Both the position numbers and the translations under genes were made by a program. A stretch of 64,000 nucleotides of DNA, from positions 3,722,001-3,786,000 of the forward strand of contig CM075996.1 of NCBI GenBank assembly GCA_038087875.1, read 5' to 3'. Below, piece after piece: positions 3,780 to 64,000 of the stretch (its first letter is position 1; every line of letters begins with the position of its first letter). Source of the DNA: Malacoraja senta (lineage: Eukaryota). The notes below the pieces were generated by a model. That model made no database searches and was not told where the DNA came from. It saw nothing but the letters and a program-made list of their open reading frames with translations.

Positions 3780-6700
3780 TCATTCTAGTACAACATTACA
3801 TTCATTATTTATTATACTCTCAACCCCACGCGGTGACCATCGCCCACGGAAGGCCTCCAGAGTCCCCGTGGACACCGCATATTCCCGCTCCAGGGACACC
3901 CGTGCACGGACGTACGCCCGGAAGAGGGGCAGGCAGCCAACTCTCGCCTCACCATCGACCGCCCGCTGCCTGGACCCACAAATGGCCATCTTAACCAGGC
4001 CCAGGAGCAAACCGACAGGGAGGTCCCAACCCCCCACTTGACTCTCCCCACACCCTACTTTATGCCCACACACTAGAATCGTGGGACTAAAATGCAACCA
4101 AAACTTAAGGAACAACCCCTTCAGATATTGGTACAGGGGCAGTAACCTCTCACACTCCATGTATACGTGGAACACAGTTTCTTCCTCGCCACAGAAAATA
4201 CACGCGGCGGACGAACCCGTGAACCGACTCAAAAGTTTATTACAAACCACCGCTCCATGCAACAGTCTCCACCCCAGGTCCCCAATGTAAAGGGGGACAA
4301 CTCCCGTATAGAAGGACCCCCACCAGGGACCCCCCCCACCATCAGGTGTGTCAGGACGGGAAACAAAGGCAAGGAGGTGCAGAATGTGCAGGAACATCCT
4401 ATACAATGTGCGTCTCTTCGCATCACGAAACGGTATGCTGATCATCTCAGAAAGGCGGCTCAGGTTGTGTGGAGCCGGTTCCCGAGATATATCCCAGAGC
4501 CTTGGCCCGATGAGCAGATCTGATGGAGCAATTGAAAGCTCAGCCAGAACCACTCTAGGCACTCGCCTCTCCTCGACACCCGCCATGACTGGGCGAGGAC
4601 CGGCCACTCCCGCAGCCGCACCATCCCCCTCCCCTCGTAGAACAACACGCTGACTAAAAACAACCAAATTCCTCACTCTGATCACATCCCGGTAGAAAAC
4701 AGGCAAACCCCTTAGGGCGGGTCTACTGATGCCCGCCACCGGGAGCCGCGAGACCCCCCCTAGGCAACGACCACGACGAAAAAAATACGTGGCCAGAGCG
4801 TGCCATCTGGGGGGATTCTCTACATACATATACCTCCGCAGAGTCCTGAGACGGAGAGCCGCCACCTGGGTACGCACGCATAGCAAGGACTGGCCGCCCT
4901 CCTCTAACGGGAGACTCAGGACCGCTGCAGAGACCCAGTGCTTCCTATTCCCCCAGAAGAAATCTACCAGCTTCTTCTGAAGAGCATTTACAAATATGGA
5001 AGGTGGGACAAGAGTAGCCAGCTGGTACCATAACATAGAGGCCACCAGCTGGTTTATGACCAGCACCCTCCCCCGGAAAGAAAGAACTCCAAGCAGGCCC
5101 GACCAGCGCCCCAGCCGGGCAACCACCTTCGTCTCCAACTCCTGCCAGTTCGCCGGCCAAGCATCCTCAGTGAGACTCAGGTAAACCCCCAGATAGAGGA
5201 GATGTGTAGTGCTCCACACATACCTTGCCATCTCCTCCGGCAGGGAATCCACCTGCCACTGACCCACTAAAAGACCAGAACACTTACTCCAGTTAATCCT
5301 TGCAGAAGATGCAGCTGAGAAAATCTCCTGGCAGTCACGCATCCTCCGCAGGTCACCAGGATCAGTGAACGTAAGGAGAACATCATCTGCATACGCTGAA
5401 AGAACCACCTCCAACCCCGGCCCAGGTAGGGCCAGGCCTGTCAACCTCCTCCGAAGAAGACACAGGAACGGCTCCACACAGACCGAGTACAACTGACCCG
5501 ACATGGGGCACCCCTGACGGACCCCCCTCCCAAACTGAAAGGGAGCCAACAACGCACCATTAACCTTCACCAGGCACTCCGCTGCAGCGTACAAAAGCCG
5601 GACCCGGGCCACAAAATGCGGTCCAAATCCAAACGCTTGCAACGTCCCGAATAGGTAATCATGCTCTACCCTATCAAAAGCCTTCTCCTGATCAAGAGAC
5701 AGAAAAGCAGCTGACTGACCAGTACCCTGAACTATATGAATCAGGTCCCTAACCAGGTGGATGTTATCCTGAATGGACCTGCCAGGGACTGTATAGGACT
5801 GGTCAGGATGAATCATTTGAGACAGCACAGGGCCCAGGCGATTTGCCATTGCCCATGCAAATACTTTATACTCTGTACATAGGAGAGATACCGGCCTCCA
5901 GTTCTTCAACACGCGGAGTTCGCCCTTCTTGGGCAGCAAGACAACAACTGCCCTACGCCACGATAGGGGCATCGCCCCGGCCGCCAAACTCTCCCCCAGC
6001 ACCAACATGTAATCACCCCCCAGGATCTCCCAGAAAGCTCTGACAAACTCCACCGTCAACCCATCCACCCCGGTGGACTTACCCTTCCTGAGCTGAAACA
6101 ATGCACAAGTCACCTCCTCCAAAGATAAGGGGCCATCAAGAAGATCGGCCACCTCCCTATCAATAGTCGGTAGACCCTCCCACAATTCCTTCTGAGCCTC
6201 CCCGTTATACCCCCCTGCGGAGAACAGGGACCCATAAAAGGACCTGACCTCGTCACTGATCCTCTCCGGATCAGTGACTGAGGATCCATCATCTGCGAGC
6301 AGCTCTACGAGCTGCTTGCAGGCTCCCCTCCCTTTCTCCAGCGAGAAAAAGAAAGGCGAAGCTCGGTCCAGATCTTGCATCATCTGGACCCGCGCCCTCA
6401 CGAAAGCGCCTCGGGACCGCTCAAGCAGCAGATTCCTCAAGGCTTCCTTCTTCTCCTGAAACTCTCCCCCATTCACAGGAGTCCTCACCATCCCGACCCA
6501 GGCGAGACTCTGCACCCAGTAGCTCCCTCTCAAGCCTCGCGACCGCTGAGTCCCTCCGTCCTGTCGACCCCCACGTATACTCCTTACAAAATAGACGAAT
6601 GTGAGCCTTCCCCACATCCCACCACTGCCTAAGGGAAGAGAAGCACCTCCGCCCCTCTCTCCACTTCCCCCCAAAACCTACTGAATGACTCCCGGAAACA

Positions 6701-7470
6701 CCGATCCTCCAGCAACCGGTTGTTAAAGTGCCAGTACGCGGACCCAGCCCTAGCGCGCGCCGGATTAAAGTCCACACGCACCAGACAGTGATCCGAGCAT
6801 GGCACCACCCGCATTGAAGCCTCTGAGACACGGGCAACAAACGCTCGGGAAATATATATTCTGTCAATACGGGAACCACCACCCTCATACCTCCGCGAAA
6901 AAGCATTGGAATCCGGATGGAGGTTCCGCCACGCATCAACCAACTCAAAGGATTCAATCATCCCTCTCAACTTCTTCGCTACAGCAGGGGCACACTGAGT
7001 ACCAGAACGATCTCCCGCCTCAAGTGTGCAATTAAAGTCCCCACCAAGGAAAACACACTCTCCCCTATCAATAGTGCTCAACAGAGCAGTCACCTCCTGA
7101 ATTAGGCCAGCCTGCATCGTACCGGAGCTAGGGGCATACACGTTAATGAAATGCAACGGCATGCCATCCAAGCTCACTGCCAGATGGAGCAAACGTCCTG
7201 GCACAACTTCATTCACTTTTAAAATCGTTGGCAGAAAATTCTGGGCCAACAGAAAGGCCACCCCACTCGAATTTGAGCTGAGATGGCTCATGTAAACCCC
7301 CCCTTCCCACTCCAGTCTCCAGGTAGGTTCATCACTAACAACTGTGTGCGTCTCCTGCAGAAAACACACTGCAAATCTCCCCCTCTTTAAGGCCTGATAA
7401 AAGCTGAAATCTACGAAAACTCGATCTACTCCCGTTTAAGTTTAATGTTGCGACGGTGAATGTAAAGGCC
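3780..7470 (-). pseudogene. Tx1 ORF2: AP endonuclease + reverse transcriptase + C-terminal Cys/His motif, interrupted by frameshifts near 6450-6670
   Basis: EN motifs TVATLNLNG, FLQETH, GGDFN, SRIDRIY, SDH (6629-7470); RT motifs KNWRPVSLL, SLDQEKAFDRV, GVRQGCPMS, YADD, YLGV and CIFCGEEETVFHVYMEC (3780-6674). Confidence 0.92.
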
Positions 7471-7499
7471 CACTTTATTAAACCCCCTCAGTCCCCATA

Positions 7500-9900
7500 G
7501 ACACAACAAATTTCTCTCTGAGTAACACCAAAAAGTCCCCAAACTGCCCCACCTCTAAGTCAGTAAGATCACTCTCCTGCTGCCAAGAATATCCTCGAGA
7601 GTCGGAATCAAACCAGGCAGATCATCCCACCGCCTACTAGCAGCATCCAATCTTGTTCTTGCGGAGCGGCTTGTTCTGAGAAACTCTCGAACCACCTTTA
7701 TCTCACAATCAAGAGCCTCGGCCTTGGAGTCTGGGCACTCGGCCAACGCACTTGCACCTGCACCATCAGACTCCACATCACAAACGTTCAAGGGCTCTTT
7801 CTGTAACTGAACGCCCAGAGCTCTCCAAAAGCTCTCCACCCCCCACTACCCAAACTTTCCGATTCACCCTCCCCCTCTTCCTGCAAGACACCACCCCCCA
7901 GGATCACTGCCAGGTAAGGGCCCCGAAACCCCCACACTGCAACAAGCATCCCCCTGACTGGCTTGGCCCCTGCACGCTACCCTCACCCTCCACGCCTTGG
8001 CCTGGGGAAGCAAAAACACTAGGCTCCCCCAGGGCCTGGGATACACTGACACCCCCTTGAAACTAAAGGGACATCACCACCCAAACTATCCCCGACCTCC
8101 ACAACACCTCTAGCATCCCCACCACTAGCAACACCCAGAGGCTCGCCTCTTTCTTTTAGCCTCTCCCCTTCCACCTCATCCGGCGATGCAGCACACCCCC
8201 CATTACCACCACTGGCACTGATGTGCAGCATAGACTGGAACACCACAGCCCCCGAACCACCCCCCTCAGGCTGACTCTGCTCATCCTCCATCTCAGGGGC
8301 CCCCCTACCAGGGGCACATACCCCATCCTCTGGCGTTCCATCACCCTCAAGAGGCCTCTGAAACGAGGGGACCCTCCTCCGACCCAGAGGACACCCCCCC
8401 AGGGGAGCTCACCTCACCACCCCGATGAGATAACTCCATCGGAGGACGCCTGAAATGAAGGGACAGCCACCCGCTCAGAGGACACAACTCCAGCGGAATC
8501 AACCCCCTCACCTGCCCTAATTTTCGCCTCACGCCCTTCCTCTTCCTCGCCAGGCCTATTCCTTTTCACCCCCACTAGCATGCGGCAGTACGGTGACCTC
8601 CATAAAGGAAGGGTCTTCCACCCCCTCCCTACCCCCATCCACTATACCCCCCCGCACCCTTTACCAACCCTTCCCCCGTCTGAGCGATCTCATCGCCTTG
8701 CTGGGCCACATCAAGCACACTCTGGACCTCACTAGAACTAACACGCATATGTTTACTCTCCGGATGGCCCTTTCCCCTTCTTCTTCCTCCCCTTCTTCAC
8801 TCCCACTTCCCCCTCCCCGTCTTCATCCTCCCCCTCTCCACCCTCTCCCTCCCCCCTCACCATTAGCCACCACCACCTCCACAGTCTCAGGACGCAGGGG
8901 CCTGAGGCCTTCCCCGCCCCGGGTCCCCAAGGCAGAACTTTCAGACCCAGATGGCCTATCACTTCCGCCCCGGATCCCCGAGGTAGAGCTAGCCGCCCTA
9001 GCCAGGTCAGCAGTGCCGCCCCGCGCCACCGAGGCATGATGTACCACCCCGGATGGCCAGCATTGCAATCCTGGGCCACTACGCTAGAACTTCTAGCAAT
9101 GCCCCTGCGAGAAAGACACTCGTTACGGAAATGTCCATATGCTCCACACTCATGACACCGTGCCTTCCCCCAACTCCAATACACGGTTCTATAGAGACCC
9201 CTGACAATCCACCTCAAAGCTCCCCCTCCTCGCCTTCACCCTCACCCACCTTCATGAACACCCTCCTCTTAAAACTCAAGATCCCTCTTTCCTCCGGGTC
9301 CCCCCCCGAGGTGCCTGAGCCTAAAGCACTTAGACCTCACCTCCCCAATCGTAGACAGGTGTGGCATAAGTGCAGCATCCCCGAAATAAATGTGGGGCAA
9401 CTCCGCAGGAGAACCGGTCTCACCCTCGATAACCACGGATCCACCTGTAATTGGATCCCCCCCACTGATATCCCCCTCTCCAACGCCATTTTCACACCCT
9501 CCTCGGTCTTCAAAATCATCTCCACCTTGCCTCTTACAAGCTCGGAAGAGACAACAGCCCGCCCCCCAATAAGGTCATTCACGGCCTTGGTAATTGCACC
9601 CCTAGACATCTGGGGCCCAGTTTGGACCGAGATACCAAACTTGCCCCAATTCAAGTTCACATAAGGCTCATGCTCCACTGTCCTCGCATCCGTCTCTGAT
9701 GCCGCCACTGCGTAGCTCCCGGTTCTTCGGCCTCGCCCCAGCCTTCCGCCATCCTGACAGAGGCACAACCAGCTCCAATCGCCCCGGCAGCTCAGCTCCA
9801 CGTTAACCTCCTGCAAACAGTCACAGTCAACAAGTAGCAGAACTCTGAAGCCTCCAGCTACAGCCAGAAAATCCCCAAAGACGTCCACAGCCGACAGCAG
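7500..9900 (-). pseudogene. Tx1 ORF1 (gag-like), fragmented
   Basis: Frames 9337-9888 and 8753-9217; zinc knuckle CHECGAYGHFRNEC; low-complexity G/E/R-rich linker; lies upstream of ORF2. Boundaries approximate. Confidence 0.7.
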
Positions 9901-10236
9901 CTTTTGGGAAGCTCTAGCCCATTCTTTCCGGACTCAACAGTACCATCTTCACATTAAACCCGGCATCCGCCGGAGCAAAATGCCTTTTTTTTCCGTTCCC
10001 TCTAACACCATCCACTCTTGGCAGTCCCGCCAACGACAACCGCACCCTCGACAATGGAAAAATATCTCCGGAATGTCCGCACTTGTGGAGAATTCCTAGA
10101 GCAGAGAAAAGTTTCACCAGTCCAACAATAAGTTAGACCATGAAGCCCCTCTGCCTCTGTTCCTTCCCCATCGACAACGTCCTTGAAAAGCTGTTTGAAT
10201 CCTTCTCAACTGCAGAGCTGAAAAAAACACAGCCAG

Positions 10237-40819: not shown

Positions 40820-41085
40820 CTACAAGATGTTATCAGGCAACTGAATCATCCTATCTCAACCAGAGAGCAGTGCTGAACTACTATCTGCCTCTTTGGTGAC
40901 CCTCGGACTATCCTTGATCGGACTTTGCTGGCTTTACCTTGCATTAAACGTTATTCCCTTATCACGTATCTATACACTGTAAATAGCTCGATTATAATCA
41001 TGTATTGTCTTTCTGCTGACTGGATAGCACGCAACAAAAGCTTTTGACTGTACCTCGGTACACGTGACATTAAACTGAACTGAAT
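40820..41085 (+). mobile_element. Abundant short repeat with Rex-like 3' tail (copies near 21215-21450, 35730-35868, 43280-43650, 52115-52200, 55850-56075, 62490-62615)
   Basis: Recurrent ...gactggttagcacgcaacaaaagcttttcactgtacctcggtacacgtgacaataaact. Confidence 0.7.
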
Positions 41086-41894: not shown

Positions 41895-42846
41895 GGTAAT
41901 TCATTCTTCAGGGAACGGGGGTTCCCCTCCTCCACCATAGATGAGGCTCGCACCAGGGTCTCTGCCATACCCCGCAACACTGCTCTCTCTCCCCATCCCC
42001 CCACTCACAACAAGGGCCGAGTCCCCCTAGTCCTCACCTTTCACCCCACCAGCCGTCACATACAACAAGTGATCCTCCGTCAGTTTCGCCTCCTCCAACG
42101 TGACCCCACCACTCGCCACATCTTCCCATCTCCCCCCCATGTCTGCCTTCCGCAAAGACCGCTCCCTCCGTAACTCCCTTGTCAATTCTTCCCTTCCCTC
42201 CCATACCACCCCCTCCCCTGGTACTTTCCCTTGCAACCGCAAGAGATGCAACACTTGTCCCTTCACCTCCCCCCTCGACTCCATTCAAGGACCCAAGCAG
42301 TCGTTCCAGGTGCGACAGAGGTTCACCTGCATCTCCTCTAACCTCATCTATTATATCCGCTGCTCTAGATGCCAGCTGATCTACATCGGTGAGACCAAGC
42401 GGAGGCTTGGCGATCGTTTCGCCGAACACCTCCGGTCGGTCCGCAATAACCAACCTGACCTCCCGGTGGCTCAGCACTTCAACTCCCCCTCCCATTCCAT
42501 ATCTGACCTCTCTGTCCTGGGTCTCCTCCATGGCCACAGCGAGCAACACCGGAAATTGGAGGAAATGCACCTCATATTCCGCTTGGGCAGTCTACATCCT
42601 GGGGGCTTGAACATTGAATTCTCCCAATTCTGCTAGCCCTTGCTGTCCCCTCCCCTTCACCAACCCTCTGGTTGTCTCCTCCCCTCCCCCAGCCCTCGGG
42701 CTCCTCCTCCGCCTTTTTCCTTTTTTCCTTTTTTCTCCCCACCCCCTATCAGTCTGAAGAAGGGTTTCGGCCCGAAACGTTGCCTATTTCCTTCGCTCCA
42801 TAGATGCTGCTGCACCCGCTGAGTTTCTCCAGCATTTTTGTGTACC
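41895..42846 (+). mobile_element. 5'-truncated Penelope-like element (GIY-YIG endonuclease + pLTR)
   Basis: ORF 42100-42636: CNRKRCNTC linker, NLIYYIRC..C..IYIGETKRRL..RF.EH, LGSLHPGGLN; followed by pyrimidine tract and pLTR with CTGAAGA..GAAAC core. Confidence 0.9.
42751..42785 (+). ncRNA. Minimal type I hammerhead-ribozyme-like motif in Penelope pLTR (representative of ~40 copies/fragments)
   Basis: CUGAAGA-A, stem II GGGU-UUCG-GCCC, GAAA, palindromic ACGU stem III, then U; stem I only about 2 bp by eye. Confidence 0.6.
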
Positions 42847-43436
42847 CTAGGTAATTCTATGTTTGTTGTTTGCTCAGTCAAGGGGATGTACAAACCTAAT
42901 GATTTTTTTCCCGCGTTTGACTAGATCACAGAATACAAATTGTCCAGTGCATGTATCATAACTCATTTGCTGGTGGGTTTGGCTGCTGTTTGTAACTCCG
43001 TCATGACTGAAATCTTCCCTTCACTTTACCTTCTATTGCACTGCCAACCAAATGTTCCCTTCACACAAGTCAAAACAACTCATTAATTATCAATTGTTAC
43101 CTTTAAGCCTCAGTGTGAGTTGCCAATGTTGGTGGATTCCCATGGCTGGAGTCACACTAAATGGTTATGCATGCAATCAAGACTTACTGGTCCATCCAAA
43201 TACTGCAAAAGTGAGTCTTATTCTGCTTGGGTAACTTACAACCCAATGGTATGAACATTGAATTCTCCTGTTTTAGATCACTAACCTACCTCATTGGTGA
43301 CCCTCGGACTATCTTTGATCTGACTTTTCTGGCTTTATCTTGCACCAAACGTTATTCCCTCATCATGTATCTGTACACTGTGAATGGCTCGATTGTAATC
43401 ATGTATTGTCTTTCCGCTGACTGGTTAGCACGCAAC

Positions 43437-43579
43437 CTCTTCTTCTTCTTGCGTATGGCGTGCACAGCCTAAAGTTGTACGACAACTTGTTCTATTTGAT
43501 CTTATTTGATTGTGCACGCCAGGTTGATTGCATTCGTCGAAACAGGGCGGACCAGGTGAAGGTTGCAATCTCCCACCCC
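43437..43579 (-). mobile_element. Ribozyme-headed short retroposon, copy A
   Basis: TSD cacgcaac (43429-43436 / 43582-43589), splitting another repeat (…ttagcacgcaac|aaaagcttttcactg…); (GAA)n tail; same 5' end as copy B. Confidence 0.85.
43526..43579 (-). ncRNA. HDV-like ribozyme, copy A (L3 variant UUCACCU)
   Basis: P1 GGGGUGG/CCGCCCU, P2 GAUUGCA/UGCAAUC, P3 ACC/GGU, J1/4 GU, J4/2 CGAA; the L3 G is replaced by C. Confidence 0.75.
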
Positions 43580-43834
43580 AACACGCAACAAAAGCTTTTC
43601 ACTGTAAACACTGTAAACAATAATAGAAAAGCTTTTCACGTGACAATAATAGAAAGATAGAAACGTAGAAAAATAGGTGCAGGCCCATATCCTTCCGATA
43701 TCCGATATCCATTCAGCCCTTTGAGCCAGCACCGCCATTCAATCTATGGTCATGGCTAATTATCTAAAATCATCACCTGTTCCTGTTTTTCCCCCATATC
43801 CCTTGATTCCGTTAGCCCTAAGAGCTAAATCTAA

Positions 43835-48752: not shown

Positions 48753-50168
48753 AGCTATCCTCTACTGGGGCTGATAGTTTGATCTTGTTCTATCTACATT
48801 AGATCAGCCTTACAGCTGATTTTTCTATTCCCTTTACCCTGACGTACTTGGCATTTCCCTTCAAAATACCTGAAAGTCATTGACAATTAAACCACTCTCA
48901 ATGTAAATTATCCATATTTTCTTATTGATAACGTTGCTTCCTCTACCCATGGCTCATCATCACAACACAAAGTGCTGGTGTAACTCAGTGGGTCAGGCAG
49001 CATCTATGGAGGGAGAGGATAGGCGACGCTTTGGGTCGAGACCCTTCTTCAGACGCCATACCTTTGGTGTTTTGCTCAATATTTTAGTGTCTGCGTTTCT
49101 GTTTCACCCTGTGTCGCCATAGTGTACCCTCGCACCTCTTCACTTTAAGTTTTAGTTCTGGAGATGCAGCGCGGAAACACGCCCTTCGGTCATAGCCTCA
49201 GAATTAAAGAATGTTCTTTCAAGAATGAAATGAGGAGGAATTTCTTTCGGCAGAGGGTGGTGAATCTACGGGATTCTTTGCCACAGAAGGCTGTGGAGGC
49301 CAAGTAAATAGATATTTTTAAGGCAGAGATAGATAGATTATTTTTTTTTAAATTTTTGTAATTAAAAGCATGTGTACCAATGATAATAAACGACAGACTG
49401 GTTACAGAGTTCTTACATAGCTTCAATTTTTAAAGTTTTTTTTTAAAAGAAAAGAAATATAGAAAGAAAGAAATAAAAGAAACTATAAGCTAATAGAAAG
49501 GAGAAAGGAAAAAAAAAGCAAGAAGGAAAGGAGATTACAAATATAAAGATTGTGGAGATAGATCCGGGAGATGTTGAGTATAGTTGTTCATCCAACCCTA
49601 AACTCAACTTGTGACTTTAATTTTGTGTTAAACCAGTTTACTTTTTTAAAAATTCAATAAATGGAGACCATATTTTCGAGAGATAGATAGATTCTTGATT
49701 AGAACAGGTTATGGGGAGAAGGCAGGATAGTGGGGTTAAGAGGGAAGGATAGATCAGCCATGATTGAATGGCAGAGTAGACTTGATGGGCCAAATGGCCT
49801 ACTTCTTCTCCTATCACTTATGTACTTATGAACTCATTCTTCAGGCTGTCTTACTTTCCAACTTCTAATTGTTGCTAATGTTTCAGCAGCAGTGAGTTAA
49901 GGTCAACGATTCTTCAACTACTTTCTGACAATCAGACCTAGTTTTTAAGTAGGCCAGCCACACATCATCGCCGTTAAAGTGTGGCACTGGGGCTAGCTAT
50001 AAAAAAGGCGGCTAAAATTAACCAAGAATATTTTAATGTCATTTCACACAGCAGTAGAAAATAATTGGCAGAGTTAGGTCCATGCATTTCTTCACAGACC
50101 GTTCTTGAAAGAAGTTTAGTTGAGTTCAGTATAGTTTAGAGACACAGTGAGGATACAACTGTCGCGTT

Positions 50169-50735
50169 ACCTCCCCCCTCGACTCCATTCAAGGACCCAA
50201 GCAGTCATTCCAGGTGCGACAGAGGTTCACCTGCACCTCCTCCAACCTCATCCATTGCATCCGCTGCTCTAGATGTCAGCTGATCTACATCGGTGAGACC
50301 AAGCGTAGGCTTGGCGATCGTTTCGCCGAACACCTCCGCTCGGTCTGCATTAACCAACCTGATCTCCCGGTGGCTCAGCACTTCAACTCCCCCTCCCATT
50401 CCGAATCCGATCTTTCTGTCCTGGGCCTCCTCCATTGCCAGAGTGAGGACCACCGGAAATTGGAGGAGCAGCACCTCATATTCCGCTTGGGCAGTCTGCA
50501 CCCCAGCGGCATAAACATTGACTTCTCCAATTTCCGGTAGCCCTTGCTGTCTCCTCCCCTTCCCAGCTCTCCCTCAGCCCTCGGGCTCCTCCTCTTCCTT
50601 TCTTCTTTCCCGCCCCCCCCCCCCCCCACCCTGCATCAGTCTGAAGAAGGGTTTCGGCCCGAAAAACGTTGCCTATTTCCTTCGCTTCATAGATGCTGCC
50701 GCACCCGCTGAGTTTCTCCAGCATTCTTGTCTACC
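50169..50735 (+). mobile_element. Penelope-like element 3' fragment (GIY-YIG + pLTR)
   Basis: ORF 50214-50540 FTCTSSNLIHCIRCSRCQLIYIGETKRRL; pLTR core at 50641. Confidence 0.88.
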
Positions 50736-53852: not shown

Positions 53853-54126
53853 TAAAGCAGGTGGAAGATAAAAGATCTGCAACATTGTAATATTTTGCAC
53901 CTCCTTCCCACAGATCGACAGAAGCCCGAGGAGTCGAGGGTTGCAGAGAACACTGAGGTGGTGCTTCACCATGGAGGAGAGCGTGGGAGGACCAGGGAGA
54001 AGCAGGATGGTGGGGCAGTGTGCTCTTGGAGGGGCAGGGAGAGGGCAAGCCGAGCCCAGTCCTCTGTGCTAGACCATGCTGTATATATCGAGAGTGCTGA
54101 CACTGGGGGAAAGGCTTCTGTGCAGT

Positions 54127-54271
54127 CTTCTTCTTCTTCTTCTTTCGTGTGGCGTGCACAGCCTAAAGTTGTTGGACAACTTGTTCTATTTGATCTTCCG
54201 TTTGTGCACGTCGAGTTGATTGCATTAGTCGAAACAGGGCGGACCACGTGAAGGTTGCAATCTTCCACCCC
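54127..54271 (-). mobile_element. Ribozyme-headed short retroposon (HDV-like ribozyme + hairpin + (GAA)n tail), copy B
   Basis: TSD ttctgtgca (54116-54124 / 54272-54280); (TTC)n at 54127-54143 is a (GAA)n tail on the - strand; homologous to 43437-43579 with the same 5' end. Confidence 0.85.
54218..54271 (-). ncRNA. Minimal HDV-like (CPEB3-type) self-cleaving ribozyme, 54 nt
   Basis: Minus strand: P1 GGGGUGG/CCGCCCU (G1-U wobble), J1/2 AA, P2 GAUUGCA/UGCAAUC, P3 ACC/GGU, L3 UUCACGU, J1/4 GU, vestigial P4 UUCGA, J4/2 CUAA (putative catalytic C at 54228). Confidence 0.85.
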
Positions 54272-55589
54272 TTCTGTGCAATGAACATCACCCACTCACC
54301 CAGCCTCAGCAGAGCCCCCTGTCCATCCCACTCAGCCCGTCTGGCTCTGCCAGGAATAGACAGACCCTCCACCCACTGGCACCCACCCACGCCGTTGCTT
54401 CAAGTTCAAGGCCAGGGTAACGGGCTTTTGCAATTCAAGTCCGTCCTGCCAGAGGGTGGTGAATCTGTGGAATTCATTGCAACAGGCGGTGGTTGAGGCC
54501 AAGCCCTTGGGTATTTTTAAAGCTGAGATGGATAGGTTCGTGATTAGACAAAAGTGCTGGAGAAACTCAGCGGGTGCAGCAGCATCTATGGAGCGAAGGA
54601 GATAGGCGACGTTTCGGGCCGAAACCCTTCTTCAGACTCTTCTTCAGGTTCGTGATTAGTAGGGGCATCAATGGTCATGGGGAGAAGGTAGGAGAACTGG
54701 GCTGACTCACGCAGAAAACCCTCAACAGCGATGCTTTCTCTTGATTAAACTCTTCTCGCTGTTTGGGTTTATCTCACATCCTTAAGGGGCCTGTCCCACT
54801 GTAGGAGGTAATTCAAGAGTTCTCCCGGGTTTCCCTGATTCGAACTCGGAGAATTACGGTAATAGCCGCTCGTAGGTACTCGGGGCTCTCGTGGACATTT
54901 TTCAACATGTTGAAAAATCTTCACGAGTCTTCCCGAGCTTACCGCGTTTCCCCGGGTACCTGCCGTTAGCGTTACAGGCCGCTAAGAGACGTCCCCGAGC
55001 TCCTACGTACCCGCTACGTACATTCTACGTGCTTACCACGAGTTTTTTTTTAAAACTCGGGAGAGCTCTTGAATTACCTCGTACAGTGGGACAGGGCCTT
55101 TAGTGGAAAGATGGCCGGGTGTTGGAAAGGATGCACAGGAGGTTTATTTGGACTGGACAATCGTACATGCCAAACTGCTAATTTACAAAGATGAGAGGGG
55201 GCAATCGGAGAATTATGGTCAGTTATCCGAACTACTTCTGCTGGATGTGTGCGAGACCTCATAACTATGGGTAGAATGAGGTAACCCTAACCCAGCAGAT
55301 CAGAGAACGGCAGCGAATTTGTATGGAGCAGTCAGGCCTGACCAACCTGATTGAATTTTCTGATGAGATAATTACAACAGTGAAAAGGGATTTGTCTGTG
55401 GATGTTATTTATTGTCTTCCAAAAGGTATTTGATAAAGTCCCTCAGGAGAGACTGATAGCAGACCGTCCAAATCAAATAATGTGGACTGTAAATAGTGGA
55501 CCCTGGACTTGACTCGGGATGGAGTTAGTCATTAGAAACTGATTTTGGGCTCGTTGGCTATTTTCAGTTTCAGTTTAGTTTATTGTCAG

Positions 55590-55850: not shown

Positions 55851-56121
55851 GTTTATTGTCACGTGTACCGAGGTACAGTGAAAAGCTTTTTGTTGCGTGT
55901 TATTCGGTCTGCAGAAAGACGATACATGATTACAATCGAGCCATTTACAGTGTATAGATATCGTGATAAGGGAATAATGTTTAATGCAAGGTAGGTAGAG
56001 CCAGCAAAGTCTGATCAAGGATAGTCCGAGGGTCACCAAAGAGGTAGATAGTAGTTCAGCACTGTTCTCTGGTTCATGATTTATGGATGTTTGAGGTGGT
56101 GGAAGGTACAACTACAGCTTT

Positions 56122-59049: not shown

Positions 59050-59207
59050 AATGGTCCAATAATGGTTGACTTCTCTCGTGCTTGGTGTAACTGTTCAATA
59101 AGGGCAGCCAGCAACTAGTCAATGTATCAAAGCGTGTTTTATTGTGTCCCAAAACGAAACAGACCTATGAGTAAGTACCTAAAGGAACGAGGTAAATTGA
59201 GTGTAAC

Positions 59208-59407
59208 NNNNNNNNNNNNNNNNNNNNNNNNNNNNNNNNNNNNNNNNNNNNNNNNNNNNNNNNNNNNNNNNNNNNNNNNNNNNNNNNNNNNNNNNNNNNN
59301 NNNNNNNNNNNNNNNNNNNNNNNNNNNNNNNNNNNNNNNNNNNNNNNNNNNNNNNNNNNNNNNNNNNNNNNNNNNNNNNNNNNNNNNNNNNNNNNNNNNN
59401 NNNNNNN
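59208..59407. other. Assembly gap (200 N)
   Basis: Run of 200 n. Confidence 1.
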
Positions 59408-62345: not shown

Positions 62346-62878
62346 TGGGGTAAAGGAAGGAGATAGCGAGCTGAGTATTATGGTTTCAAGACAATGACGT
62401 CTCCCTCAATGGCAGCAAAATGAAAGATGTGCTCATCAGCTTCAGGATGAGGGCTGGGTCTGCATCCCGGTTCGCTGGCTTTACCAGATCACGTATCTGC
62501 ACACACTGCAAATGGCTCGATTGTAACCACGTATCTATTGTCTTACCGCTGACTGCGTAGCGCGCAAACGGAAGCTTTTCACTGTACCTCGATACACGTG
62601 GCAATAAACCAAACTGTATAAAATTCGACCTTGCGGGTTTAAGAAAAGGGACGTGAGATTGCTGAGTGCAATCAGTGCACGAGAATAGCGCTGCGCACAG
62701 TGGGGGAGTCCACGCATGTTGAGGTTTGAACTATAATGAGTTCAACCCACAGGCTCTTGTGCACTCGGTTCGTTCTGAGCTTTTGACACCCGTGCTTTGT
62801 TAAATAATCAGAAATAAGCATGAGCTCCAGGTACTCACTCCAGGTACTCACTGATCGCTTTTCCTCCTGTCTTTGCAG

Positions 62879-62993
62879 ATACCTTATGAATGTAAGCTTT
62901 GAGGGAAGGAACCTCTCCTTCAGTGAAGACGGGTACCAGATGCACCCCAAATTAGTAATCATCCTACTGAACAAAGAACGGCTATGGGAAAAG
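62879..62993 (+). CDS. grin2b: Internal coding exon of NMDA receptor subunit GluN2B (end of amino-terminal domain)
   Basis: Pyrimidine tract + acceptor ttcctcctgtctttgcag|A at 62879 and donor AAG|gtaagg after 62993; 115 bp. Translates (R)[38 protein letters not shown], which I recognise as nearly identical to vertebrate GluN2B ([39 protein letters not shown]) and less like GluN2A. Confidence 0.95.
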
Positions 62994-64000
62994 GTAAGGG
63001 GCTTTAGTGGGGTTTGTATGGCAACGAAGATCATAGATATTCATGCTGCAAGCCATTTCGCCCATCGTTCCATGATGGAAGCAACCAACGATATTTCATT
63101 GTCCTATCTGGGACACATGACAATAAACTCTCTTGACTCTTGAATCTTGAGTCTCATATACAAACAAAGACACAGAGTGCTGGAGTAACTCAGCGGGACA
63201 GGCAGCATCTCCGGGGGAAAAGGACCAGTGACGTTTCGGGTCGGGACCCTTCTTCAGACATCTTCAGTCTTCTAGCTGAAGAAGGGTTGCAACCTGAAGT
63301 AGACAACTATTTGCGGGTGTCAGGGGTTACGGGGAGAAGGCAGGAGAATGGGGTTGAGAGGGAAAGATAGATCAGCCATGACTGAATGGCGGAGTAGACC
63401 GGATGGCCTAATTCTGCTCCTATCACTGATGAACTTATGAGCTCATCCTTTCAAACCTGCACCACATTTAAGTCAGTGTGATTATCTGACACTGCCCCAG
63501 GTCTCGTGTCCTCTATGCTATATCAGTTCCCCATAACGTTCAATTATCGTAGTTGTGATGTTCTACATCCTTTGGTTTCCCTGCTTGTGGGTTTAGTTTA
63601 GTATAGAGATACAGCACGGAAACAGGCCCTTCGGCCCGACCAGCGATCCCCGCACACTAACACTACCCCACACACACTAGGGACAATTTTTACATTTAAA
63701 CCAAACCAATTAACCTACAAACCTGTACGTCTTTGGAGTGTGGGAGGATACCGGAGATCTCGGAGAAAATCCACGCAGGTTTATAGCATCATGGTTCGAC
63801 CCTGACATTGTGGGCCGAAGGGCCTGTTATTGTGTTGTACTGCGCTATGTTCTATAATGGTTCAATGCAGAGAGGGCATGAATTGCAACTCCGAACCATA
63901 TTTAGTTTAATTTAGAGATGCAGTGCGGAAACAGGCCCTTCGGCCCACCGAGTCCGTGCCAACCGGCAATCTCCGCACACGAACACCATCCTACACACAC

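Follow-up and report, generated by a model that had tools for sequence, protein, structure and literature searches.

A 140-nt LINE-derived element with a predicted HDV-type ribozyme head, and a copy of it with a G25C change, in a grin2b intron of Malacoraja senta

RESULTS

Two antisense copies of a short element lie in a grin2b intron

The window analyzed here is a 64,000-nt stretch of the Malacoraja senta genome (assembly GCA_038087875.1, contig CM075996.1, positions 3,722,001 to 3,786,000, forward strand). A coding exon of grin2b lies on its plus strand at 62877..62996 (ends approximate), and its match to GluN2B chains (E=8e-20) sets the orientation of the gene. Further grin2b coding exons were placed near C20:3637 kb, 3680 kb, and 3785-3809 kb by searching 464 kb with motifs expected of the gene. 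Given these placements, the window up to the exon near 62.9 kb falls within one grin2b intron of ~104 kb, between the second and third coding exons. This intron holds two copies of a short element, copy A (43437-43579) and copy B (54125..54271), both on the minus strand. Since grin2b runs on the plus strand, both are antisense to it, as the first-pass annotation had stated, and the ribozyme strand of copy A would be absent from grin2b pre-mRNA, so that the gene would be unaffected by whether this ribozyme is active. The window also contains a long LINE of another type (3780-9933, minus strand), in which reverse transcriptase (RT) and zf-RVT share a 965-aa frame and an endonuclease occupies another, as well as two GIY-YIG fragments (42073-42636 and 50151-50540, plus strand; Pfam E=2e-4 for the first) that we take to be Penelope-like, and an assembly gap of 200 N at ~59200-59400.

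Copy A reads from 43579 to 43437 and is a single 140-nt element with G25C in L3. Its nt 1-54 (43526..43579, minus strand) form a predicted minimal HDV/CPEB3-type ribozyme with G1 at 43579, an assignment that draws on the sequence, on pair counts, and on a weak RF02682 alignment of a sister copy. Alignment to LINE 5' ends, together with the fold, places nt 55-81 (43499..43525, minus strand) as the remainder of a LINE 5' end, of which nt 59-69 have a predicted pairing partner in nt 113-123. A short linker that aligns to neither LINE end follows (43486..43498, minus strand, boundaries approximate), after which nt 95-129 (43451..43485, minus strand) align to the LINE 3' end, comprising the last codons of the partner open reading frame (ORF), the stop, and the 3' UTR, and including a C100G change. 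The element closes with an (AAG)n tail (43437..43450, minus strand). Copy A interrupts a host interspersed repeat (43286..43606; other copies at 40885-41052, 55874-56047, and 21259-21429), and its target is present once in the empty sites of this repeat within the window. The annotation was thus right that copy A has its own target site duplication (TSD) inside another repeat; the TSD is 10 bp with one mismatch, not 8 bp (43427..43436 on the tail side, 43580..43589 with the mismatch on the head side), and it directly adjoins G1, where the 8-bp reading had left a 2-nt gap.

Copy B carries the marks of a second subfamily, an intact G25, and a 9-bp TSD (54116-54124 and 54272-54280), and given this separate TSD and the different subfamily, A and B are independent insertions. 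The two are 89% identical, and both do start at the same nucleotide, with GGGGTGG at G1 (43579 and 54271), as had been claimed. The further claim that their ribozyme differences fall only in unpaired positions was borne out: within nt 1-54 there are exactly three, at nt 8 (G in A, A in B; J1/2), 25 (C/G; L3), and 45 (G/T; J4/2), and the P1, P2, and P3 sequences are identical. A third grin2b intronic copy, at C20:3681130-3681261, shows C25 as well and, after it, has lost 10 nt in P1/P3. The second rare change of copy A, C100G at window position 43480, lies in the loop of a 7-bp hairpin; it is common to 12 close G25 copies, and the loop (nt 98-102) is variable in all four public runs.

The head is predicted to fold as a P4-less HDV-type ribozyme

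The first 54 nt can be folded into a nested double pseudoknot with a G1-U wobble at the predicted cut, the arrangement of HDV-like ribozymes. In the predicted fold, P1 joins nt 1-7 to 30-36 (with G1-U36), P2 joins 10-16 to 48-54, P3 joins 17-19 to 27-29, L3 spans 20-26, and P1.1 is C22-G37; there is no proper P4, and the predicted catalytic C44 is at 43536. A C44 followed by (G/U)AA in J4/2 is present in both A and B, and C44 was found in 138 of 146 aligned copies. Regarding the U20-G25 reverse wobble, G25 is kept in 4,645 of 5,236 core matches across the family; copy A has lost the G of this pair, with C at 43555 (minus strand), as read from the sequence and the genome counts.

Across six close sequences, 100 of 101 cells in P1, P2, P3, and P1.1 were paired compared to 19-42% in slid controls. 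Given that the structure was read from the same sequences and that no two-sided change was found among the six, these counts indicate consistency, not proof. An Rfam search of the window gave 0 hits and one of copy A gave no ribozyme match. RF02682 could be aligned over its full length with nt 1-54 of a G25 copy (L003) at E=1.7, and its 14.4 bits are far below the gathering score of 44 bits. Pseudoknot-free folding gave z values of -1.1 to +0.9, and in the folding model a competing G37-C44 hairpin could trap C44. Taken as modeled, the head is a predicted ribozyme of the HDV type, and source transcripts are likely cut by it at G1.

The loss of G25 in copy A would be expected to matter. In a nematode HDV-like ribozyme, G25A showed no visible cleavage at 60 s, and G25 O6S in an HDV-like ribozyme was 1000-fold slower, according to the accessible part of PMC13635239; the U20-G25 pair is described as intolerant of single changes in the available portion of PMC3386971. 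Neither text, as far as it was accessible, gives a rate for G25C (PMC13635239, PMC3386971). Since these sources speak to G25A and to the U20-G25 pair and not to G25C itself, the earlier suggestion that copy A is slowed or dead is by analogy likely, with G25C slowing or killing its predicted ribozyme.

Thousands of copies share the G1 start

A 22-mer core pattern with G25 had 4,645 exact matches in the genome compared to 0 for a reversed control; genome-wide, the same core with C25 matched 163 times and with A or T at this position 428 times. Together with other one-off patterns, this puts the family at no fewer than 5,866 copies, a few of which are LINE heads. A TSD (median, 11 bp) was found in 115 of 165 aligned copies chosen by their head, compared to 2 of 80 in a shuffled control. 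In 49 of these 115 copies the TSD stopped right at G1; in 29 it reached +1 to +3, for the most part through G microhomology, and in 2 it reached +5 or +6. The remaining 35 had a TSD end further upstream, chiefly owing to terminal mismatches. When copies were instead chosen by their 3' part (the first 30 of 2,747 matches, all on C1), 28 of the 30 aligned from nt 1-3, one was split by an insertion, and one had no nt 1-19. The G1 start is therefore a trait of the family, and the survey of genomic 5' ends that had been proposed as a check came out uniform.

The first-pass annotation had taken identical 5' ends as a sign of self-cleavage. The shared start does hold genome-wide, but the fixed start of an internal promoter fits it equally well: a uniform 5' end is also expected from an internal promoter plus a short template, and L1Tc has both, as described in the accessible part of PMC3383444. 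One could hence argue that the head is no working ribozyme, that an internal Pol II promoter sets the 5' end, and that the fold is a relic or a shield for the RNA end. The lack of P4, the single-pair P1.1, and the weak Rfam score would fit this, as would the report that the fold itself raises insertion efficiency in R2 templates (PMC11331408). Against it, the point at which the elements start is precisely G1 of a full double pseudoknot in which U20, G25, and C44 are present, and P4-less minimal HDV-like ribozymes cleave in vitro, per the available text of PMC10879173; we regard a head devoid of ribozyme function as very unlikely.

Four subfamilies can be distinguished by diagnostic positions defined in this analysis, with copy A in the main one. 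Subfamily-level changes in nt 1-54 are limited to three: position 8 in J1/2, position 32, where a U-A pair of P1 becomes U-G, and position 45, just 3' of the catalytic C. As judged from sequence, these are unpaired or pair-keeping changes, as one would expect were the fold required in source elements.

Both ends of the element derive from one Vingi-like LINE

With a search pattern that excluded the middle of the short element, we obtained 58 matches, most of which were ORF ends with a zinc-knuckle-like motif and WMSTLDLQL-stop that then continue into the 3' UTR and (AAG)n tail of the short element. Walking 5' from these LINE 3' ends led to an element of ~3.1 kb (L211) with apurinic-type endonuclease (APE) and RT pieces, whose head is nt 1-81 of the short element. 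The short element thus consists of the first ~81 nt of the LINE joined to its last ~45 nt, with the middle missing. The ribozyme head was present at 10 of 29 LINE loci (one duplicate removed), and at two of them, L203 and L210, head and tail both lie within one TSD. All LINE copies examined appear broken or truncated. An intact relative of 1019 aa (P0001), on a 3.3-kb public contig, is 72% identical to the partner LINE, and the next best hits reach at most 46% identity over the full query. No labeled Vingi, Ingi, or RTE reference was among the 120 hits listed, nor was one found in PDB. Pfam searches of the L211 pieces and P0001 identified an endonuclease, RVT_1, and a weak zf-RVT, and no RNase H. 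Vingi elements are defined by a compact single ORF with APE and RT and without RNase H (PMC13708176, accessible part), a definition that the partner LINE fits, the clade being suggested by domain content.

Several side observations concern this LINE. At L210:1424-3022, a 1.6-kb internally deleted LINE with head and 3' half within one TSD represents a larger bipartite form. An inverted part was seen in 9 of 29 LINE copies (L185, L198, L208, L216, L218, and L220, also L181, L200, and L222), and in 6 of the 9 the inverted piece is the ribozyme head (first 70-230 nt) beside a truncated body; these head inversions resemble twin priming at the RNA 5' end. In copy A, the predicted nt 59-69/113-123 stem (11 bp, window 43457-43521) pairs the LINE 5' end with the 3' UTR, and since it joins both LINE ends, the two ends of a full LINE RNA could pair with each other as well. 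A SINE with a tRNA, 5S, or 7SL head was considered and rejected, given that the head aligns to the LINE 5' end and that no small-RNA-gene match was found in Rfam.

G25C is in excess over its strand mirror

C24-G25 is the center of a palindrome, ACGT, so the mirror of G25C on the other strand is C24G. Genome-wide, G25C occurred 163 times and C24G 24 times, an approximately sevenfold difference (p=1e-26) that persisted after removal of duplicated loci (162 versus 21). The other changes at this CpG were symmetric (428 G25A/T versus 437 C24T/A), and among the 100 matches listed for each there were 85 A and 15 T at G25 versus 86 T and 14 A at C24. The asymmetry between G25C and C24G rules out plain CpG decay as the full cause. 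A general G>C strand bias is likewise ruled out by the parity of neighboring sites, with 12 G27C among the 100 matches listed (of 108) versus 13 of 58 for C22G; six other CpGs gave 13 G>C versus 5 C>G in 141 copies. Template switching was also rejected: a tract copied from the 5' G-run or an ACCTTC direct repeat would alter further positions, whereas a second change at nt 26-28 occurred in 3 of 166 G25C matches, and the hairpin that a switch could use is weak (-1.9 kcal/mol).

The G25C copies do not form a single subfamily. From 70 of the 163 sampled, three duplicates were dropped, and the remaining 67 spread over all four subfamilies (49, 7, 7, and 4), the share of the main one being 49 of 67 compared to 21 of 30 for G25 copies (p=0.81); no second change common to the 67 was found. 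This bears on the reading that G25C came from G25C source elements or arose while the folded ribozyme was being reverse transcribed, in which case the catalytic G would be dispensable for retrotransposition or mis-copied during it. A strand- and site-specific excess flanked by symmetric neighbors fits such an origin, and G25C copies do begin at G1 with TSDs. However, C25 occurs on at least 6 haplotype backgrounds with no second change in common, G25C copies are not younger than the others (private divergence of 3.7%, compared to 3.8-3.9% in other L3 mutants), their TSDs were found less often (44/74 versus 71/91, p=0.011), and the crowding at chromosome ends described below is not expected of a copying error. 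We consider this origin unlikely. A bolder version, in which the ribozyme itself makes G25 a mutational hotspot, either by the LINE RT mis-copying the metal-site G or by G25C sources jumping uncleaved, appears somewhat less likely still; if true, thousands of genomic copies would record ribozyme chemistry and, the Vingi head having the same register as CPEB3, this family would offer a living model of the mobile element from which the CPEB3 ribozyme descended.

On C1-C6, 32 of 60 G25C copies lay less than 6 Mb from a chromosome end, compared to 3 of 25 control G/C transversions (p=0.0005). In the chromosome interior, G25C still outnumbered C24G by 28 to 10. Mid-C2 (85.8-91.8 Mb) holds a cluster of six G25C copies and in this respect behaves like a chromosome end. 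Changes to C numbered 46 in 64 G25C copies versus 5 in 29. In contigs of four public runs, compared without the C24 mirror control, G25C made up 2.7, 2.0, 0.8, and 0.6% of depth, so that two runs repeat the excess and the other two are near a 0.5% baseline; the difference among runs may reflect species or platform, and one of them may come from the very sample that was assembled.

The crowding at ends, the variation among runs (where G25C moves with two other changes to C), and a GGC motif directly before the site on the opposite strand would all suit an error of sequencing or polishing that depends on sequence context and affects GC-rich regions of low coverage, possibly extending to the C25 of copy A. 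GGC is an error-prone sequencing context. Yet in the contigs of two runs G25C is the only G>C above 1% besides the reference's own variant (a point tempered by one of these runs possibly being the assembly's own sample), C25 is found in both members of a 99.4%-identical duplicate, head-side TSD copies have no excess of C, and G25C also occurs in copies without GGC. Error is therefore a possibility that we rate as well short of likely. The likeliest of the readings, held tentatively, is that the G25C excess reflects a site-specific, recombination-linked change after insertion at chromosome ends.

Strand proxies give no support for purging from introns

The first-pass annotation had proposed that sense-strand cleavers are purged from introns. 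All four copies within the grin2b coding span are antisense (p=0.125), and a fifth, beyond the last grin2b exon seen, has the same orientation. Two weak genome-wide proxies were without signal: neighbors 5-100 kb apart shared a strand in 19 of 34 pairs (125 copies, first 40 Mb of C1), and the AT skew of unmasked flanks on the element strand was 0.002+/-0.006 at 156 loci, flank skew being a proxy for gene strand with a noisy calibration on the grin2b region. Among G25C loci, flank skew was +0.05 in the 12 from the first search and 0 in the other 51. The purging claim was accordingly not supported; these annotation-free proxies leave room for a moderate bias, yet they offer no support for purging.

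A wider form of the same idea is that host selection removes cleaving sense-strand intronic copies or favors dead ones. The four antisense grin2b copies agree with it, as does the enrichment of G25C on small chromosomes (C1 holds 10 of 163, versus 93 of 428 for G25A/T). The local p of 0.125 speaks against reading much into the former, the strand concordance of 19 of 34 would have P=0.057 were 70% expected, the flank skew is null, and the inactivating G25A shows no excess over its mirror. Host selection as the explanation is thus quite unlikely.

DISCUSSION

Copy A is an ordinary decayed, passive copy. In our assessment it is quite probable that it belongs to a LINE-derived, 140-nt non-autonomous element whose predicted ribozyme head likely cuts at G1, and that its G25C, likely a change after insertion, is likely crippling. 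In the proposed life cycle, source copies would be transcribed by read-through or from an internal promoter, their transcripts would cleave 5' of G1, and the LINE protein would copy the RNA by target-primed reverse transcription from the (AAG)n end, after which inserted copies would decay.

The element belongs to a known class, the bipartite non-autonomous LINEs, which includes Vingi derivatives: it has TSDs and a simple-repeat tail, is dispersed and multicopy, and both of its ends come from one LINE with the middle deleted. The closest parallels are NARTc/L1Tc and RIME/Ingi of trypanosomes, in which a short non-autonomous element joins ~77 nt of the 5' end to a short 3' end of its LINE and an HDV-like ribozyme cuts at +1 (PMC3383444, available part); here the cut is predicted from sequence. 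Unlike those elements, the one described here is 140 nt long with a 54-nt P4-less head and an (AAG)n tail, and it has a partner without RNase H, a vertebrate host, and thousands of copies. It also resembles non-autonomous Vingi derivatives (Vingi-1_EE; Kojima 2011, cited via PMC5786205), internal deletions of a compact single-ORF APE+RT LINE without RNase H, and Vingi is absent from the list of ribozyme-bearing clades in the accessible text of PMC5786205. Like the Drosophila R2 SIDEs, it combines a ribozyme head with a LINE 3' end, whereas the SIDEs are rDNA specific and rare, with a full P4 and a long J1/2, and the Malacoraja senta element is dispersed; a hybrid R2 SIDE with two L3 differences still cleaved, at 54% compared to 85-89% (PMC3414825, part available).

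The head matches the register of the CPEB3 ribozyme at G1-U36, U20, U21, C22, A23, G25, U26, G37, and U38, and as in CPEB3, P1.1 is one G-C plus U-U; CPEB3 differs in having a P4, in being single copy, and in lying sense in its intron (PMC4836649, accessible portion). The lack of P4 is shared with minimal HDV-like ribozymes, of which the theta forms are almost confined to phages according to the available part of PMC10879173. Our search of the main texts of the literature found no earlier description of the 140-nt element.

The G25C excess points either to a site-specific mutational process, as yet unexplained, or to an error in the assembly that deserves to be known. The family as a whole offers a large natural set for testing the intronic purging of self-cleaving insertions. 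Confirmation of cleavage would mean that thousands of dispersed retroelements in a vertebrate are headed by an HDV-like ribozyme without P4, a type known mostly from phages, and that Vingi joins the ribozyme-bearing LINE clades.
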